Below are positions 1 through 12,729 of a stretch of DNA of 13,994 nt, one piece after another. This DNA comes from a virus (Duplodnaviria; Heunggongvirae; Uroviricota; Caudoviricetes): the IMG/VR virus record IMGVR_UViG_2585427783_000004; one strand, 5' to 3'. Both the position numbers and the translations under genes were made by a program. Under the pieces are notes generated by a model, which was given only the letters and a program-made list of their open reading frames with translations, was not told the DNA's origin and searched no databases. Within the stretch, counting starts at the first letter, position 1; each line of letters opens with the position of its first letter.

Positions 1-1614
1 TTATTTATTGGTGAGTACTACGTTCCATGGCAGGAGTTCATCAACTCGGTTGGAAGGCCATTCCGGCAGTACGCTCAGGATATGGCGCAGATACGCTTCC
101 GGATCGATACCGTTCAGACGGCAGGTGCCGATCAGCCCGTACAACAGTGCTCCACGCTCGCCGCCGTGATCGCTGCCAAAGAACATAAAGTTTTTCTTTC
201 CGAGACAGACTGCACGAAGCGCTCTTTCCGCAGCATTATTATCCGCCTCCGCCAGACCGTCATCACTGTAATAACAGAGGGCATCCCACTGATTCAGTAC
301 ATAGCTGAACGCTTCGCCCAGTCTGGATTTTTTCGACAGCGTACCATTCTTCTCCACCATCCATTCATGCAGCGACGTCAGTAACACTTTGCTTCGCTGC
401 TGCCTGACGGCAAGACGCTCTGACTCCGGTAATCCCCGTATTTCATCCTCGATGGCGTACAGTTCACTGATTCGCTTCAGTGCTTCTTCTGCCGTCGCAC
501 TTTTGCTGCTGATGTATACATCGTGGATTTTTCGCCGGGCATGGGCCCAGCACGCAACTTCTGTCAGTGCACCACCTTCACGTTCTGCACTGAACAACCT
601 GTCGTAACCTGTGAACGCATCCGCCTGCAGGATACCCCGGAAGGGGCGGAGGTGTTGCTCCGGGTGTTTCCCCTGCCGGTTCGGCGAGTACGCGAACCAG
701 ACCGCTGGAGGAGATGACGAACCCACATTGCGATCATCCCGGACATACGTCCAGATACGCCCTGTTTTCGCCTTTTTCTGACCCGGTGCCAGTACCTTTA
801 CCGGTGTGTCATCAGTGTGAATCTTGCGGGTGTTCATTACATAACGGTACAGGGCATCATTCACCGGTGTCATTAACTGGCAGCACGCGTCAACCCAGTT
901 GGAGAGTAAGGCCCGGCTCAGTTCGACACCCTGGCGGGCAAAGATTTCACTCTGACGATACAGTGGCAGATGTTCGCAGTATTTTCCCGTTAACACGCGG
1001 GCAAGTAATCCGGGGCCCGCGATACCACGCTCTATCGGGCGGGACGGCGCCGGTGCTTCAACAATACAGTCACATTTTGTACAGGCTTTTTTTACCCGTT
1101 CTGTGCGGATCACTTTCAGGGCACTGCTCACCAGTTCCAGCTGTTCAGCGCTGACTTCCCCCAGATAATCCAGCTTACCGCCACACTCCGGGCAACAGCT
1201 TTCTTCTGGCTCCAGGCGGTGTATTTCACGGGGAAGGTGTGCCGGTAACGGACGACGATGGCGCGACTGTCGCAACTGGCGGGGAACCTGAGGATCGTCT
1301 TCCCGCCCACTGTAACGATCGCTGTCCTGTTCACGTTGTTTCAGCAGAGCCTCAGCCAGTTCAACTTCACGACGCAGTTTTTCAGAACGGGTACCGAACA
1401 GCATCCGGCGCAGTTTTTCTATCTGAGCCCGCAGATGTTCTATTTCCCGTTCATCTTCTTCGATCTTTTCTTCGGCACGTGTCAGTGCAGAGCGCAGGAA
1501 GGCTTCCGTCTCTTCAACCAGACTCAGTTGCTGGTCTTTCTGACGGAGGGCTTCAGCCTGCTCAGAGAGCAACCTTTCCAGCTCTGCGATGCGAATGAGG
1601 TATTTCTGACTCAT
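1..1614 (-). CDS. IS66-family transposase (TnpC / Orf3), 537 aa
   Basis: ATG at 1614, TAA at 3..1. Translation shows an N-terminal coiled-coil/leucine-zipper region, a CxxC...CxxC zinc-binding motif (CCPECGGK...CTKCDC) and a C-terminal DDE-type region, as in IS66 TnpC proteins (recognised from family signatures, not a search). Confidence 0.9.
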   Translation of the reverse strand: MSQKYLIRIAELERLLSEQAEALRQKDQQLSLVEETEAFLRSALTRAEEKIEEDEREIEHLRAQIEKLRRMLFGTRSEKLRREVELAEALLKQREQDSDRYSGREDDPQVPRQLRQSRHRRPLPAHLPREIHRLEPEESCCPECGGKLDYLGEVSAEQLELVSSALKVIRTERVKKACTKCDCIVEAPAPSRPIERGIAGPGLLARVLTGKYCEHLPLYRQSEIFARQGVELSRALLSNWVDACCQLMTPVNDALYRYVMNTRKIHTDDTPVKVLAPGQKKAKTGRIWTYVRDDRNVGSSSPPAVWFAYSPNRQGKHPEQHLRPFRGILQADAFTGYDRLFSAEREGGALTEVACWAHARRKIHDVYISSKSATAEEALKRISELYAIEDEIRGLPESERLAVRQQRSKVLLTSLHEWMVEKNGTLSKKSRLGEAFSYVLNQWDALCYYSDDGLAEADNNAAERALRAVCLGKKNFMFFGSDHGGERGALLYGLIGTCRLNGIDPEAYLRHILSVLPEWPSNRVDELLPWNVVLTNK

Positions 1615-1644
1615 GACCGTTTTTATAATGCGGTCAGGAGTTTT

Positions 1645-1995
1645 TTACAACATTGTCAGTGAGTTACGGCTGGATGTTTTTGGCTGACGCCAGTCCAGCT
1701 TATCGAGGAGCATTGCCAGTTGCGAGCGGGTAATGGATACCTTGCCGTCACGTACCGCAGGCCAGATAAACTGGCCTTCCTCCAGGCGTTTGGTGAACAG
1801 GCACAGACCATCAGCATCAGCCCAAAGAATTTTGACGGTGTCACCCCGTCGGCCACGGAAGATAAACAGGTGACCGGAGAAGGGATTATCATTCAGCACA
1901 TGTTGTACCTGTTCTCCCAGTCCGTTGAAGGATTTACGCATATCGGTAACGCCGGCAACGAGCCAGATACGGGTACCTGATGGGAGTGAGATCAT
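1645..1995 (-). CDS. IS66 Orf2 (TnpB-like accessory protein), 116 aa
   Basis: ATG at 1995 overlaps the tnpA stop (ATGA), TAA at 1645-1647. The MISLPSGTRIWLVAGVTDMRKSFNGL... N-terminus is characteristic of IS66 Orf2. Confidence 0.85.
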   Translation of the reverse strand: MISLPSGTRIWLVAGVTDMRKSFNGLGEQVQHVLNDNPFSGHLFIFRGRRGDTVKILWADADGLCLFTKRLEEGQFIWPAVRDGKVSITRSQLAMLLDKLDWRQPKTSSRNSLTML

Positions 1996-2417
1996 CTTCC
2001 CCTCCCGGTCAGTTCACGGATCAACACTGTGAGCAGCTCTGGCGATGGATTTTCCAGCGTCATGTTACCGTGACGGAATTCCACCTTGCAGGAACTGGCA
2101 CTGACTCTGGTCTGAGTGGAAGTGGATAAAGACGGCGCAATGGCCGCCACAGGTTCTTTCTGCTCATCCGGCGTTATTTCTACAGGTAATAATTCAACGC
2201 CAGTGTCAGAAGAGGTCGTTACCGGAAGACGCCGCGAAACACGCCCTTCGTTCTGCCAGAGCCTGAGCCATTTGAAAATAACATTATCATTGACGCCATT
2301 TTCACGTGCAATCTGTGCAACACAAGCTCCAGGTTGTGATGCCAGTTCCACCATACGAAGTTTGAATTCATTCGAATAGTTTTTACGAGGTTCTTTTCGC
2401 CAGTCCTGTAATTCCAT
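1992..2417 (-). CDS. IS66 Orf1 (TnpA-like, helix-turn-helix), 141 aa
   Basis: ATG at 2417; first gene of the IS66 triad; N-terminal HTH-like segment (CVAQIARENGVNDNVIFKWLR). Confidence 0.8.
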   Translation of the reverse strand: MELQDWRKEPRKNYSNEFKLRMVELASQPGACVAQIARENGVNDNVIFKWLRLWQNEGRVSRRLPVTTSSDTGVELLPVEITPDEQKEPVAAIAPSLSTSTQTRVSASSCKVEFRHGNMTLENPSPELLTVLIRELTGRGR

Positions 2418-2502
2418 ACTTAGATGTCCGTCTATATCAGATGGGCGTCTAAGTTACCAATTCTCGTCTGATGGCTACATACGGCGGTCAGTTTACGCTT
2501 AC

Positions 2503-3348
2503 GACAGAGTTATAATTTTTGCCAAAATTGGTAATGTCAGAATTTAATCCCTTAATTAAGTCTGCTGACGGCTTACCTTTTTGCCCCAGCTCCATTAGCT
2601 TCAATCCCATCTCATCTGAGTGAATTTGTGCTCGCTGAGCCCTGTCTAGTTGAGCGTTCTGGATATTTGCCCATCCTCTCGCGTTCTCCATGTCAGCCTG
2701 ACGCATACTTTCATCCAGTCGCCCTTGCTCAAGTCGACGACCTTCCATTTGATCTTTGATATCGAAATACTTCTCATGACCGAGAGAAAACAGCGCCAGA
2801 TTACCTGCGAAATGCTGGAAGCCCTGCGGGTCATTAACCTGCATTTCAGCAATAGTTTCTGGAGGGATACCTAAACGACGCATCTCCTGCTCATTATCCA
2901 TCATGAACCTGCCAAATGCGCCCTGACCAAGCGATGAGGCTACCTGTGCTTTGAGCGCCAGATTGCCATAATCATCCCTTTGAGCATCATCGACATAACT
3001 CATCCCTTTACGGACTTCCTCAAACTCTTCTGGGAATGCTGTAATAAGATTACGCATCTGCTCCCTGTCACCGGACGCATAAGCATCTGCATAACCTTTC
3101 TGGAATGCCGCTTTACGTTCCTGCTGTTGCTGCTGCTTATAAATGTCAGCAACTCCAGCCAGACCACGAAGACCTGTCAGAGCAACGTTATTTGCACCTG
3201 AGCGAGCCAGTTCATTGTTTTCGCGGATCAGACCAAGCGTTGCGTTAATGTCGCTTGCCTTTGGCGCATTCTCATTTTGCGCACCGATGCCAGCCAGAAA
3301 ACCACCAGAATTAATACCCTGTTGCCACGTAGCCATAAATTTACCCAC
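2503..3348 (-). pseudogene. Q/E/R-rich, predicted alpha-helical protein of unknown function; 3' end interrupted by the IS66 insertion
   Basis: Open frame from 3348 (alternative ATG at 3334, MATWQQ...) runs without a stop into the IS. The last codons and stop (V-S-V-N-TGA, 2502->2488) are encoded by the IS terminal repeat itself, so the native C-terminus is missing from the window. Poly-Q tract (QQQQQ) and coiled-coil-like composition. Confidence 0.55.
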
Positions 3349-8432: not shown

Positions 8433-8692
8433 TTCGCACTCTCCACATCGATTAAACTGATATCTATCAGGGAGGTAACTTTTTGTAGCCAGCTATTGAT
8501 TACTGTCGCCTGTTCCCCTCCCACCGAGGGAATAATCTCATTCATCACATGAACCAGACCTGTGCGCGCTCTGGTAAGCCGTTCAGTCGCGCAATCTGCG
8601 GGAGTGAATGTGTCTGGATATGGCTCTTCGCGCCCCAGCAATGATTCAATTTCCAGCTCACACGGATGACGATAAATTAAGTTGATATTCAT
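8429..8692 (-). CDS. Hypothetical small protein, 87 aa
   Basis: ATG at 8692; ATGA overlap with the upstream gene stop; part of the chain of overlapping genes. Confidence 0.55.
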   Translation of the reverse strand: MNINLIYRHPCELEIESLLGREEPYPDTFTPADCATERLTRARTGLVHVMNEIIPSVGGEQATVINSWLQKVTSLIDISLIDVESAK

Positions 8693-8883
8693 TTTTCACC
8701 ACCAAGAATTACCAGCTCTGCACGGGCATCGTTAACCAAAGATGAGCACGCTTTAATCGCATCCACGACATCAGCAGCGTCCATTTCTTCAGCCGAAAGA
8801 CTGACAGCAACCAGGACAGCCGCTGCTTGCTCGATTAATTGAAGTGCGGACGTAAGGCGAGGGGTATTAATTGAGTTATTCAT
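8689..8883 (-). CDS. Hypothetical small protein, 64 aa
   Basis: ATG at 8883 preceded by GGGGG about 6 nt upstream; 8-bp overlap with the upstream gene. Confidence 0.5.
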   Translation of the reverse strand: MNNSINTPRLTSALQLIEQAAAVLVAVSLSAEEMDAADVVDAIKACSSLVNDARAELVILGGEK

Positions 8884-9094
8884 TGGTTGCCCCCGTTTTT
8901 ACTGGCATTTCGCCACCTTCCAGCAGGAAATGAACGTCACGAACGGCGAGATCCAATATCGCGAGTAACGCCTTCAGTCTTTCGTCTCGTGAGGGAGAGT
9001 TGCTCACCAGAATGTCGTTAATCACTTCTGTCAGTGTGATGATCTGGCTTGTGCGTTCGAGGGGATCCATATGCACATCGTAGGTTTTAATCAT
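8876..9094 (-). CDS. Hypothetical small protein, 72 aa
   Basis: ATG at 9094 preceded by GGAGGTG at ideal spacing; the start overlaps the stop of the upstream 64-aa gene (CATGATTAA). Confidence 0.55.
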   Translation of the reverse strand: MIKTYDVHMDPLERTSQIITLTEVINDILVSNSPSRDERLKALLAILDLAVRDVHFLLEGGEMPVKTGATNE

Positions 9095-9281
9095 GTGCCA
9101 CCTCCATGCGGATACGACCAGCAAAAAAGCAGACGTGATCGCGCACCAGAGAACGGCGAGCATCGCGTTCAGACTCGGCAGCAATATGATGAATTTTGGC
9201 GGTAATTGTCGGGCAATCGCGGCGAACTGCGGCGATAATCCAGATAAATTGCGTTTTTTGGGTAGGGGTAGTAGCCAGCAT
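9087..9281 (-). CDS. Hypothetical small protein, 64 aa; first gene of the early operon that ends with the primase
   Basis: ATG at 9281 preceded by a perfect AAGGAGG 7 nt upstream. All seven Arg codons are CGC/CGT and Leu is CTG, whereas the overlapping frame of the 355-aa ORF is full of CTA/TTA/ATA/AGG/CGA here. Confidence 0.55.
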   Translation of the reverse strand: MLATTPTQKTQFIWIIAAVRRDCPTITAKIHHIAAESERDARRSLVRDHVCFFAGRIRMEVAHD

Positions 9282-9477
9282 GTGGCAGCCTCCTTCAGAT
9301 AGCAGGTTACGCTACCACCGGAAACGCCAATTTCGCTGGTGGTAGCCCAGACAGGGTTGGCGTAACCGGCTCTGAAGGATACCGGCGCTTCCGAAGAAGC
9401 CCCCGCCTGAGCCACCATTGATTGACAAAGGCGCTGGATTATACACCAACGCCCAAAAAATGGGTGAGTCAGACCTA
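9282..9477 (-). promoter_or_regulatory. Promoter plus structured 5' leader of the early operon
   Basis: Minus-strand TATAAT at 9443->9438 (no good -35). Downstream leader has a UUCG-tetraloop hairpin (GCUUC-UUCG-GAAGC, 9400->9387) and a 9-bp stem hairpin (GCUACCACC ... GGUGGUAGC, 9346->9311) before the SD at about 9290. Confidence 0.35.
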
Positions 9478-9513
9478 CGACATAAAAAAAGACGCTTGGC
9501 GCGTCATATGTCG
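9478..9513 (-). terminator. Candidate rho-independent terminator at the end of the alpA-side transcription unit
   Basis: Minus strand: stem GACGC / GCGUC (5 bp, 5-nt loop) followed by U7 (9490->9484), nested inside a larger inverted repeat CGACAT ... ATGTCG (9478-9483 / 9508-9513). Confidence 0.4.
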
Positions 9514-9943
9514 CCTTCAGAATTTTTAGGACGCCAATCCCGGCACCCGTTTTATGAGGTGCCTTATAACCATAAACCGTGTTGCCGCATAACGGCAAGC
9601 TCTTTTTTATGGACTCCGAAAACTCACTATTGGAAGAACCAGAAGCACAGTACATCGCGCTCATTTCGTTAACGTCACGCGCGTGGACGAAGGTTTTTGT
9701 GGAGTCACTACACGAGCAGAGAAAGCCATCTACGACCAGAAATTCTCTGGCATAGCCGCTGACCTTCTCAACGCTAACACCATCGACCGTAATTTCTGAC
9801 ATAGTTAAGGCATCCGCTCCTACCACCAGCAAATGATAAACTTTGCTTGTATCTGCTGTATTAATGTCTGACTTTGCTGTCATATTGCTGGATTTTGGCG
9901 ACATACCAGCCAGTGAAAATATCTTCTTCTGGGCGGTTAGCAT
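9514..9943 (-). other. Open frame with a plausible start (GGAGG + ATG at 9943) but no in-frame stop before the terminator and promoter; possible decayed gene or chance open frame
   Basis: SD GGAGG 7 nt upstream of the ATG at 9943 and protein-like composition for about 120 codons, but the frame runs through a terminator, a promoter, leader hairpins and a better-supported gene in another frame without any stop. Confidence 0.25.
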
Positions 9944-10119
9944 TTGTTAACCTCCGCGAACTCCTTCATGAAACGTGCCAGCGGTTGTACGCATGGCGAT
10001 TGATACCCGTCGCGATAAAACGTCACTCGGTTGTGAGACACGCTTTCGACAGTAACGAGTGCTCCGTGGGCATCTTTGTAGCGTTTTTGAGGTTGTGGTG
10101 TTCCTGTCGGCTTAAACAT
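9937..10119 (-). CDS. Hypothetical small protein, 60 aa
   Basis: ATG at 10119 (MFKPTGT...) preceded by GGAGG 6 nt upstream; the start overlaps the stop of the antirepressor-like gene (ATGTTTAA). The ORF-track start at 10206 is a non-coupled upstream extension. Confidence 0.45.
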   Translation of the reverse strand: MFKPTGTPQPQKRYKDAHGALVTVESVSHNRVTFYRDGYQSPCVQPLARFMKEFAEVNKC

Positions 10120-10957: not shown

Positions 10958-11389
10958 TTAGGCGGCGTTAAACGCGTCCGGGTAGAGTTTCAGAATGTCG
11001 GCAATTTCCTGCTGAGAAAGTCCGTTGTGATCATTTATGTTCGCAAGATGGTTAACATGAGTGATCACTTTCAGAACATCACCACGGCAGGAGAAACGGT
11101 AGCGAAGGTGTGTTCCGATACCATCAGGATTCTTTTCGTCGATACGCTCCAGAGTGATTCCAAGCTGGCGTTCTAACTCTGTTGCATAGTTACGACCAGA
11201 AGACAGACGGCAGTAGCGAAGAATGTCATTTTCTGTCCATCCCTCTATACCAGTACGCAGCATATAGACTCGGGCACGATGCTTTTTCGGTGTGCGCTTT
11301 GGTGCTTGAAGGGATTTTGTAAGGGGCGTAATATCAGATACGCGAATATCTGAATTAGCCGCCTGTAATGGGCGGTTTTTCTTTTCCAT
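10958..11389 (-). CDS. Hypothetical protein, 143 aa, basic N-terminus; function unknown
   Basis: ATG at 11389 overlaps the alpA stop (ATGA); no stop for 143 codons; conventional codon usage. Confidence 0.6.
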   Translation of the reverse strand: MEKKNRPLQAANSDIRVSDITPLTKSLQAPKRTPKKHRARVYMLRTGIEGWTENDILRYCRLSSGRNYATELERQLGITLERIDEKNPDGIGTHLRYRFSCRGDVLKVITHVNHLANINDHNGLSQQEIADILKLYPDAFNAA

Positions 11390-11607
11390 CAGGCCACCTT
11401 CCCGCGGCGTTCTGCCAGCCAGTTATTAATTTCCACCGCATCAAACGCAGTCACGTTATCTGTTAGCTTCACTGGGCGTGGAAGAGTGCCATTTTTAACC
11501 CATCTATCAATAGTAGGCAGTGAAACACCTAGCAATTCCGGCATGCGAAAGCGACGGATGTATCCAGTTGTTGGGATAGCTGATGATGCTGGCTTGTGTA
11601 CTGTCAT
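11389..11607 (-). CDS. alpA: AlpA-family (excisionase-like, MerR-type HTH) transcriptional regulator, 72 aa
   Basis: ATG at 11607. Small protein with the motif MPELLGVSLPTIDRWVKNGTLPRPVKL...AFDAVEINNWL typical of AlpA/Xis-type regulators found next to P4-type integrases. Confidence 0.75.
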   Translation of the reverse strand: MTVHKPASSAIPTTGYIRRFRMPELLGVSLPTIDRWVKNGTLPRPVKLTDNVTAFDAVEINNWLAERRGKVA

Positions 11608-12078
11608 GTCTCTAGTAACCTCTCTGATAGCTCATGAAGTTACTTAAAGTTTAGTGGTTGCCCATACAGTATTTCTATTAAGACTAGAATCTATTGAAAG
11701 AAATTATAAATCTATTGAAAAAATACCGATCCACTGAAAGATTGCAAATGCAGGTGGGATAATTATTTTCTTTATTTTCAATTAGTTACCAGTTTAAAAA
11801 ATCATTGTTTTATCAAAGAGTTATATCTTTCATCGTCATTCATCATGTTTTTACATTTCTTTTTATCTTTTATTATTCAATTGGTTGAGTCGGTTTATAA
11901 TGGCTCATGATGGCTTAAAATGGCTAATGATAGCTGGCGTATCTTTTAGAGATGGGGTGATTACAGATGAACTAAGCCGAACAGATATAGCAATGGCTAG
12001 GCATAGAATTATCTATGCTGGTGGAGATGGGTAAACAGGTAATGCCCCGCCATTGCTTTGGAGGGGCGTGAAAAGTGA
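11608..12078 (-). promoter_or_regulatory. AT-rich intergenic control region upstream of alpA, carrying repeat motifs
   Basis: 470 bp with no ORF of 60 aa or more, strongly AT-rich with A/T tracts. Contains direct repeats AATCTATTGAAA (11688-11699 and 11709-11720), a 7-bp-arm palindrome GCATAGA-atta-TCTATGC (12001-12018) and the phased array at 11901-11938. Confidence 0.4.
11901..11938. repeat. Helically phased tandem 10-bp repeats TGGCTnAnnA (3 good copies plus 1 degenerate)
   Basis: tggctcatga / tggcttaaaa / tggctaatga / tagctggcgt read directly from the sequence; 10-bp periodicity places copies on one DNA face. Confidence 0.45.
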
Positions 12079-12729
12079 TTAGTCGAGATCGTGGACAGCT
12101 AATAAAGCCCGTGAGATTTTTTCTAGGAATGTGGCTTTTGCTATTCCTTTATGGGATATCCCTTCATCCTTGATTAAGGTTTCTATGTCACGGTATATAG
12201 CTGTGCGATTAGGTTTCCCATTTTGGATGTAGGAAGATGAGCCTGATTTTTTTATCAGCAGATGTACTATCAACCCCATCATTTTCATTGTCCCGTTTTC
12301 CTCATCCTGCTTTCTATGCTGCCCACGTCCGCTGCGGTTGGTTTCTTTGATGTAGTTTACTAACTGGAGTCCTCCAAGGTTTCGGGCTTTTTCTTCCCAG
12401 CCCTTGGTGCCACGCAAATCATCAATCGCTTCTGATATTTTCTGAACAATTATTTCTGGTGTATTTGTGTCAATAAATGGGTAAGAAGCTAAGAAAATAT
12501 CAAGGGCATGGCAAGGCTCATCTTTACTAGTTTTTTCACCTCTGTACACCTTGATAGCTCTGGCAAGATGAGTTCTGACAAAATCGACATATTCGAAATT
12601 TTCCTCAGGCACATCGCTAATGCGCATAGATGGGTTTAGGCCAGCCAAGGCCACAGCCATTTCATGAGGGGTAATCGATACAGATGAACAAAGCCGTTCG
12701 ATTGGCGATTTTCTCAAGATGTTGTTCAC
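12079..12729 (-). CDS. Hypothetical protein, 216 aa, translationally coupled to the integrase; AT-rich cargo gene of unknown function
   Basis: GTG start at 12729 overlapping the integrase stop (GTGA) with a strong GGAGG 5 nt upstream; TAA at 12079-12081. Visibly lower GC than neighbouring genes. No family recognised. Confidence 0.6.
   Translation of the reverse strand: MNNILRKSPIERLCSSVSITPHEMAVALAGLNPSMRISDVPEENFEYVDFVRTHLARAIKVYRGEKTSKDEPCHALDIFLASYPFIDTNTPEIIVQKISEAIDDLRGTKGWEEKARNLGGLQLVNYIKETNRSGRGQHRKQDEENGTMKMMGLIVHLLIKKSGSSSYIQNGKPNRTAIYRDIETLIKDEGISHKGIAKATFLEKISRALLAVHDLD

Follow-up and report, generated by a model that had tools for sequence, protein, structure and literature searches.

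An open frame carried across the isrK and C4 immunity RNAs of an Escherichia coli island: a probable counterpart of the P4 eta frame in variant wiring

A 355-codon open frame (8876..9943) occupies the minus strand of the window, by which we mean the whole 13,994-nucleotide stretch of viral DNA (Caudoviricetes) catalogued as IMG/VR record IMGVR_UViG_2585427783_000004. The frame is of a known kind, the eta carrier frame that P4 bears over its CI and seqA RNAs, in a variant wiring, and it is probably the counterpart of P4 eta in action as well: a frame laid over an RNA immunity cassette so that ribosomes passing along it override the immunity. What is observed are the RNAs themselves, the co-variation of their targets, the conservation of the frame, a lack of amino-acid constraint in most of it and the overlaps of its start and stop with the neighbouring genes. 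A first-pass annotation of the window had reported the frame with its ATG start, which the open reading frame list and the translation bear out, and had judged that it is almost certainly not one protein. It is indeed not a conventional single folded protein: the frame crosses regulatory RNAs, an icd-like gene read in another frame and a separately initiated 72-residue gene.

For comparison, 80 loci were fetched from a one-genome-per-species collection with an alignment of Icd/Kil proteins, blind to the carrier frame. Of these, 79 resemble P4 in having an isrK and a C4 RNA upstream of icd/kil. The fetched loci with the cassette, P4, the window and two of its E. coli relatives form the set of 83 loci used below. 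In the window the cassette comprises the following elements:

9569..9598, minus strand: putative internal promoter just upstream of isrK; -35 TTGCCG 9598-9593, 18-nt spacer, -10 TATGGT 9574-9569
9485..9562, minus strand: isrK-family RNA (seqA-like leader); Rfam RF01394, 60.5 bits against a gathering threshold of 50, model positions 1-77
9537-9531 and 9521-9514, minus strand: upstream target blocks in isrK, TTGGCGT and TCTGAAGG, recognized by complementarity to C4
9505-9491 (stem) and 9490-9484 (T7 run), minus strand: intrinsic terminator of isrK; terminator scan
9438..9443, minus strand: TATAAT hexamer, 21 nt ahead of the start of C4, seen in the sequence and found at the same offset in 10/83 loci
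9335..9422, minus strand: C4, the antisense immunity RNA of P4-CI type; Rfam RF01695, 79.9 bits against a gathering threshold of 45, model positions 1-87
9378-9371 and 9363-9357, minus strand: specificity loops of C4, CCTTCAGA and ACGCCAA, seen in the sequence
9282..9334, minus strand: leader; holds the downstream target blocks of seqC type, TTGGCGT at 9330-9324 and TCTGAAGGA at 9299-9291

The C4 match covers the full-length consensus structure and the isrK match two hairpins and the terminator; the Rfam match and the terminator scan agree that isrK ends with the hairpin and the T7 run. The terminator that the first-pass annotation had pointed out is this one and belongs to the isrK-family RNA, and what it had called leader hairpins is the C4 antisense RNA. 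In the literature isrK has been equated with P4 seqA and C4 with the P4 CI RNA (PMC3632133). The two C4 loops are complementary to TCTGAAGG(A) and TTGGCGT in isrK and again to these blocks in the leader; there, TCTGAAGGA overlaps the Shine-Dalgarno (SD) sequence AAGGAGG of icd (9295-9289). As in C4/CI-type immunity, complementary blocks lie on either side of C4, one set within isrK and the other over the ribosome-binding site of the first gene, and an alignment reveals three-way co-variation of C4 loops, isrK blocks and leader blocks between immunity types. Across the 83 loci the cognate complementarity averages 7.8 and 8.7 nt, compared with 5.6 and 5.7 nt for non-cognate combinations. The consensus structure of C4, derived from 82 sequences, has 28 pairs, 14 of which show compensatory double changes and almost none of which are broken. 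Judged by these comparative criteria, the RNA immunity system is functional.

The promoter upstream of isrK was placed by alignment with P4 and with loci L002 and L006; a simple promoter scan of the window did not flag it. In Gifsy-1 a promoter at this position has been shown experimentally (PMC4825925), and we infer from the alignment that 9598-9569 is the counterpart of P4 PLE and Gifsy-1 PisrK. The promoter named in the first-pass annotation is instead one between the terminator and C4. The TATAAT hexamer at 9443-9438 does lie there, but it is kept only in the subgroup of the window, which includes loci of Buttiauxella and Symbiopectobacterium, whereas the promoter conserved with P4 and Gifsy-1 is the one upstream of isrK. 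The hexamer may represent an extra promoter dedicated to C4 in this subgroup and absent from P4.

An AUG at the 5' end of C4 (9418) sets the phase of the carrier frame and is invariant in 82/82 aligned C4 sequences. In 80 of the 83 loci, many of them related, this phase is free of stops over the stretch that begins 60 nt before isrK and ends at the ATG of icd; either of the other two phases is open in none and carries on average 2.8 and 5.1 stops. The result is true of all but one of the 14 clusters formed at 80% identity and of the 23 clusters formed at 85%. The spacer between isrK and C4, which varies among loci, holds no stop in the carrier phase compared with 44 and 32 in the others, from which about 38 would have been expected. 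Its length changes respect the phase as well. The distance from isrK to C4 takes nine values. Eight of them (101, 125, 128, 140, 143, 146, 176 and 185 nt) leave a remainder of 2 when divided by 3; only 139 nt does not, and the two loci that have it both have a broken frame. By our own calculation, eight frame-preserving classes out of nine correspond to a p value of about 0.003. The possibility that the phase is open merely because the RNAs are conserved was considered and rejected: even the most variable parts, which are the spacer and a stretch of 75 nt preceding isrK, are free of stops in the carrier phase only. The frame is broken in three loci, in L047 by a stop inside C4 and in L048 and L086 by a 1-nt shift within isrK; these three may be decaying elements. 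In four lambdoid phages (L088-L091: SfV, 118970_sal3, an Stx2a phage and Ayreon) the isrK-C4 distance is 101 nt and the phase is the same; their cassette lies inside an annotated gene of 277-380 amino acids between cro/cII-like and replication genes, and both ends of that gene overlap its neighbours.

The full length of the frame is likewise conserved. All 355 codons are kept in four E. coli relatives, where PGAP names the full-length product "ash family protein". In three of the four, the 250-nt immunity core is about 40% diverged from the window without an indel, compared with 2-5% for the flanking genes; this divergence is a swapped immunity specificity. The exact 355-residue product is recorded from 341 contigs, its cluster at 90% identity has 1393 members and that of the second immunity type 681; among the approximately 15 members listed per cluster the length is mostly 355 residues. 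The first-pass annotation had proposed a decayed or fused gene remnant or a chance open frame in G+C-rich regulatory DNA, had suggested that orthologous islands might reveal a frameshift or a lost stop, and had named orthologues of the same full length as what would tell against it. The relatives keep the full frame and the full-length orthologues are on record, so that this interpretation is unsupported; it also has to face the 80/83 loci open in one phase and 0/83 in the others, and the frame-preserving length changes. Public annotation of the stretch is inconsistent: in loci L001 and L002-L006 the PGAP labels range from a full 355-residue gene to an "incomplete" pseudogene of 212 codons with a separate icd and a "frameshifted" Icd-like pseudogene.

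Both ends of the frame are tied to the adjoining genes:

9937..10119, minus strand: upstream DUF4222 gene; Pfam PF13973, E 6e-25, and annotation
9955-9951, minus strand: SD sequence GGAGG of the carrier frame, seen in the sequence
8876..9943, minus strand: eta-like carrier frame, 355 codons, from the open reading frame list, ATG start; public name "ash family protein"
8689..8883, minus strand: next gene, 64 amino acids, its ATG (8883) 5 nt upstream of the carrier-frame stop

In the window the ATG at 9943 lies on the stop of the DUF4222 gene, 381 nt upstream of isrK, and the TAA at 8878-8876 overlaps the ATG of the next gene. The start thus has the properties of the coupled start of an eta-type frame, namely an SD sequence, an overlap with the upstream stop and a position upstream of the internal promoter, the place of the latter resting on alignment. 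Across loci the carrier stop overlaps the downstream start in 75/76, and the first in-frame ATG lies on the stop of the upstream gene in at least 64/76.

The window departs from P4 in the way the frame meets the first gene after the RNAs. Two protein genes are concerned:

9087..9281, minus strand: Icd/Kil-like gene, 64 amino acids; NCBIfam NF033153 (phage_ICD_like), E 3.9e-20, 71.6 bits against a cut-off of 25
8876..9094, minus strand: p72, a gene of 72 amino acids nested in the 3' end of the carrier frame; its own SD GGAGGTG at 9105-9099, ATG 9094-9092

The Icd-like protein aligns with P4 Kil at 38% identity. That it is a gene in another frame, as the first-pass annotation had maintained, is supported by the family match, by codon periodicity in its own phase in the variation across loci, and by its codons: rare codons number 0/62 in the icd frame and 12/62 in the carrier frame over the same stretch. 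The icd RNA is rich in C and poor in G (C/G 1.27), as expected of a Rho entry region such as timm of P4, which maps to 8365-8209 within kil (PMC3177188). Of the 83 loci, 72 resemble P4 in that icd/kil is read in the carrier phase. In the other 11, including the window, it is out of phase: the distance from C4 to icd is one nucleotide shorter (141 or 138 nt), and the carrier phase begins one base downstream of the icd phase (icd+1), so that the icd frame of the window is offset from the carrier frame by two bases in the downstream direction. The frame crosses icd out of phase since C4 and icd are 141 nt apart here and 142 nt apart in P4.

In most of the out-of-frame loci the carrier frame continues past the icd stop, and in 8/11, again including the window, it runs on for 172-211 nt. 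A tblastn search found p72 in 7 of these 8, and there the frame ends at the p72 stop. The claim of the first-pass annotation that the last 219 nt form a separate gene is supported. The p72 ATG overlaps the end of icd, and homologues with 39-50% amino acid identity occur in four other genera (L011, L014, L018 and L019), always in the carrier frame and each beginning 5 nt before the icd stop; Pfam, PHROG and NCBIfam yielded no match for p72. The icd+1 phase is free of stops in 7/7 divergent out-of-frame loci, the chance per locus being 0.2-0.6 in synonymous resampling, and each of the five nearest in-frame relatives has one stop in that phase. This is moderate evidence that the icd+1 phase is kept open where it is used.

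Conservation along most of the frame is not that of a protein. When positional entropy is read in the carrier phase, third positions are not in excess over the promoter, isrK, the spacer, C4 or the leader, and the frame as a whole does not behave as an ordinary protein-coding gene under purifying selection; only its last 72 codons do, with a ratio of nonsynonymous to synonymous substitution rates (dN/dS) of about 0.1 for p72. The N-terminal 123 codons have a dN/dS of 0.37-0.62, a weak constraint compared with the 0.1-0.3 of neighbouring genes. The 123 residues they encode have homologues only in close relatives and offer no functional lead; Pfam, PHROG and NCBIfam contained nothing for this part. 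The N-terminal extensions of different lineages are not homologous and range from about 51 to 615 nt. Unrelated extensions (window 9900-9943, minus strand; L009, L010, L012, L019 and L006) share an early motif, …QKK.FSLAGM or …K.F.LAGL…, and several of them contain repeated SKPD/IKPD motifs, which may represent either a peptide or a nucleic-acid signal. An AlphaFold single-sequence model has a mean predicted local distance difference test score (pLDDT) of 37, with no confident fold for residues 1-283 and weak confidence over p72. In codon usage, a score that the first-pass annotation had proposed for the minus-strand phases, the carrier phase ranks first of the three everywhere but over icd, with few rare codons outside icd. 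The statement that only about the first 120 codons look protein-like was therefore partly right: the carrier phase ranks first well beyond them, and the first 123 codons themselves are only weakly constrained. Since the frame is kept free of stops, lacks codon periodicity and contains C4 stems with compensatory changes, selection appears to act on keeping it open for the passage of ribosomes and not on the middle of the peptide.

The resemblance to P4 extends over the whole region. P4 Eta comprises 199 codons from the ATG at 8767, passes through isrK (8692-8615) and C4 (8507-8420) and enters kil in frame. Common to both elements is the order of an alpA-type gene, a carrier frame with internal promoter, isrK/seqA, terminator, C4/CI and leader, and then replication genes that end with an alpha-type primase. 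Also shared are the target blocks over the SD sequence of kil or icd and the phase in which isrK and C4 are read. In both elements the frame has a start coupled to the gene before it and a stop that overlaps the gene after it. The window thus has, like eta, one open frame over isrK/seqA, terminator and C4/CI in the phase of the C4 AUG. It differs in that P4 nests kil in the same frame whereas the window nests p72, which P4 lacks. Further differences are an N-terminal part of 127 codons compared with about 25 in P4, the presence of a 143-amino-acid gene, AntA and DUF4222 between alpA and the carrier frame, and, in the subgroup of the window, the possible extra -10 element upstream of C4.

The immI operon of phages P1 and P7 (c4-icd-ant) is the type system of Rfam C4 and c4-a1b1. 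Its antisense RNA is processed from the operon transcript and is flanked by two target blocks on each side; those on the downstream side cover the ribosome-binding site of icd, and a small gene of the icd family is the first after the RNA. There ant follows, whereas replication genes follow in the window. In the Gifsy-1 isrK-orf45-anrP region, isrK is again followed by a C4-like RNA, which lies inside orf45. This frame begins at the C4 AUG, nt 107 of the isrK transcript, in the carrier phase (L092, 34076-34330, minus strand). It has been shown to be translated by western blotting of an SPA-tagged product and is coupled to the downstream gene by an overlapping stop and start (PMC4825925). Unlike in the window, an in-frame TGA stands two codons before the C4 AUG, and a promoter located after antQ serves isrK itself, so that no carrier frame enters from upstream. 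The downstream gene encodes an antirepressor and not Icd, and IsrK acts in trans as a translation activator.

For P4, the account in PMC10111431, which cites Forti et al. 1999, describes a constitutive promoter inside eta whose transcripts end early through CI-seqA interactions; Kil is given there as a truncated Eta, full Eta as translated only from the upstream late promoter in coupling with the alpA homologue, and Eta translation as preventing termination. A corresponding scheme can be proposed for the window. In the repressed state, the promoter inside the frame and upstream of isrK would make short transcripts with two fates, termination at the end of isrK or processing to the C4/CI-type RNA. 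This RNA would pair with its target blocks, those of the isrK leader as well as those of the leader covering the icd ribosome-binding site; icd would then remain untranslated, and Rho would be expected to end transcription inside that gene. During transcription of the upstream AlpA-AntA-DUF4222 operon, ribosomes that have completed DUF4222 would re-initiate at the ATG at 9943 and translate through the internal promoter, isrK, the terminator, C4 and the leader. Their passage should prevent the RNAs from folding and pairing and should keep Rho off the transcript. They would cross icd out of frame, finish at the p72 stop and hand over to the next gene, and by this hand-over past the immunity the replication genes would be expressed despite it.

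Several points weigh against this proposal. Translation of the carrier frame and the prevention of termination by it are carried over from P4 and Gifsy-1, by analogy. Many of the 83 loci are related, and their counts overstate the number of independent observations; nor are the 0/83 of the other phases 83 independent failures, because their stops lie partly in conserved RNA positions. Since icd is not in frame, unlike in P4, ribosomes would have to cross 62 codons, 12 of them rare, and the openness of the carrier frame over icd is only moderately significant. The upstream promoter could not be located: no P2-type late-promoter motif TGT-N12-ACA occurs upstream of the AlpA-like gene, and in a simple promoter scan of that region no single promoter stood out. 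Finally, some database proteins derive from versions with T6 or T8 in place of the T7 run of the isrK terminator, which break the carrier frame and cut it to 155, 167 or 210 amino acids (P0001, P0008, P0004, P0006 and P0013); these versions may be assembly errors, products of decay or slippage-prone sites. The T7 run is kept in at least 288 of the 292 complete E. coli genomes with the spacer type of the window, as counted with the majority flank of the terminator loop, in which most of these genomes differ from the window by one base. Pattern scans for T6, T7 or T8 variants of the isrK terminator found none among contigs of viruses or metagenomes. As the source of the T6 and T8 variants, programmed slippage on the U7 run was considered and rejected, as nothing supports it.

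Of the competing explanations, the one that survives best, although it is unlikely, holds that only parts of the frame are translated: a short product from the ATG at 9943 that disrupts the isrK terminator in the manner of attenuation, or an orf45-like product that starts at the C4 AUG and couples translation downstream, the full reading being incidental. The invariance of this AUG would suit such a use, as would a PHROG family that begins exactly at residue 176, and Gifsy-1 indeed uses only the portion from the C4 AUG, with an in-frame stop just upstream (PMC4825925). However, no SD sequence precedes the AUG at 9418 in the window, P4-like loci are open from the stop of the upstream gene to the start of the next without an internal stop, and it is precisely the lineage with a use for the open phase over icd that has preserved it.

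Somewhat less probable still is a genuine protein of the Ash/Bro network with a function of its own, for example as a regulator, encoded by a stretch that serves both RNA and protein. Residues 124-232 of the carrier frame match Phage_ASH (PF10554) strongly (E 5.9e-34, 117 bits against a gathering threshold of 26), PHROG matches are labelled regulators, database members number in the thousands, the N-terminal dN/dS is below 1 and the C-terminal 72 residues are a conserved protein. Phage_ASH has been listed among the Bro-network protein domains (PMC10111431) and has served as an "epsilon" marker in a survey of P4-like satellites (PMC8628076). Yet the whole profile falls on the -10 element, isrK, spacer, C4 and leader, at 9248-9574 (minus strand) in the window and at 8330-8704 in P4 (L007), and likewise in SfV (L088). 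Over this stretch, where the third-position excess is lacking, conservation follows the RNA pairs and target blocks; the non-homologous N-terminal extensions and, more weakly, the absence of a confidently modelled fold point in the same direction. Because the profile matches the cassette nucleotide for nucleotide and without protein-type constraint, "ash family" appears to report immunity RNAs read in the carrier frame and not a protein fold.

The weakest alternative, that the frame is not translated as a unit and owes its openness to accident or to a decaying fusion, the G+C-rich structured RNA, the overlapping gene and the real terminal gene beneath it simply happening to lack stops in this phase, draws on the missing amino-acid constraint in the middle, the low pLDDT, the narrow distribution of the N-terminal 123 residues, the PGAP pseudogene call in the nearest genome and the 20-60% of synonymous resamplings in which the frame over icd is open by chance, but it is very improbable in view of the single open phase across loci, the stop-free hypervariable spacer, its frame-preserving lengths, the start and stop placed on the neighbouring genes and the persistence of 355 codons across a 40% diverged immunity core.

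The window is an E. coli integrative island adjoining yicC and is 99.9% identical over 1.7 kb to strain FORC_031. Its genes are arranged in the order P4-type integrase, AlpA-family helix-turn-helix (HTH) gene, 143-amino-acid gene, AntA, DUF4222, carrier frame, several small genes and a P4-alpha-type primase, followed by a truncated P22-type injection gene and an IS66 element. The upstream operon begins with the following gene:

11389..11607, minus strand: AlpA-family HTH gene, first of the upstream operon; Pfam Phage_AlpA, E 6e-6

This gene is the counterpart of P4 vis/alpA, and the promoter that would drive translation of the carrier frame presumably sits in the AT-rich DNA preceding the gene. 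Between a 216-amino-acid gene and the AlpA-like gene, positions 11650-12080 have a G+C content of 31-39% and presumably form the control region of the operon. At the other end, the IS66-family element (1-2417, minus strand) consists of orf1, orf2 and a transposase of 537 residues that reaches the window edge. Adjoining it, at 2488-3348 on the minus strand, is the P22-type injection-protein (Inj_translocase) gene of 286 amino acids, which was probably truncated by the IS66 insertion because its FORC_031 counterpart has 447.

A wider generalization is put forward only tentatively and with somewhat less than even confidence: that such a "translation conduit" is the rule for the isrK-C4 cassettes of P4-like satellites, PICI-like islands and some lambdoid phages, that PF10554 is a pseudo-protein family that tracks the RNAs, and that in the lineage of the window the conduit has been rewired by a 1-nt shift. 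If this is true, the frame would be preserved only as a stop-free sequence in the right phase, and ribosomes from the upstream operon would use it to override RNA immunity. The 1-nt shift would mean that override transcripts cross the presumably toxic icd out of frame and that the long product ends in p72 sequence and not in Icd. The idea that a frame is kept open purely so that its translation overrides RNA-mediated termination has so far been tied to one P4 study of 1999, and the loci compared here support it at the scale of populations; they also reveal a second wiring of the scheme, one without in-frame reading of icd. The thousands of "ash family protein" entries in the databases appear to reflect two small RNA genes held in a conserved phase, and the main practical lesson is to read this annotation as the mark of an RNA immunity cassette.

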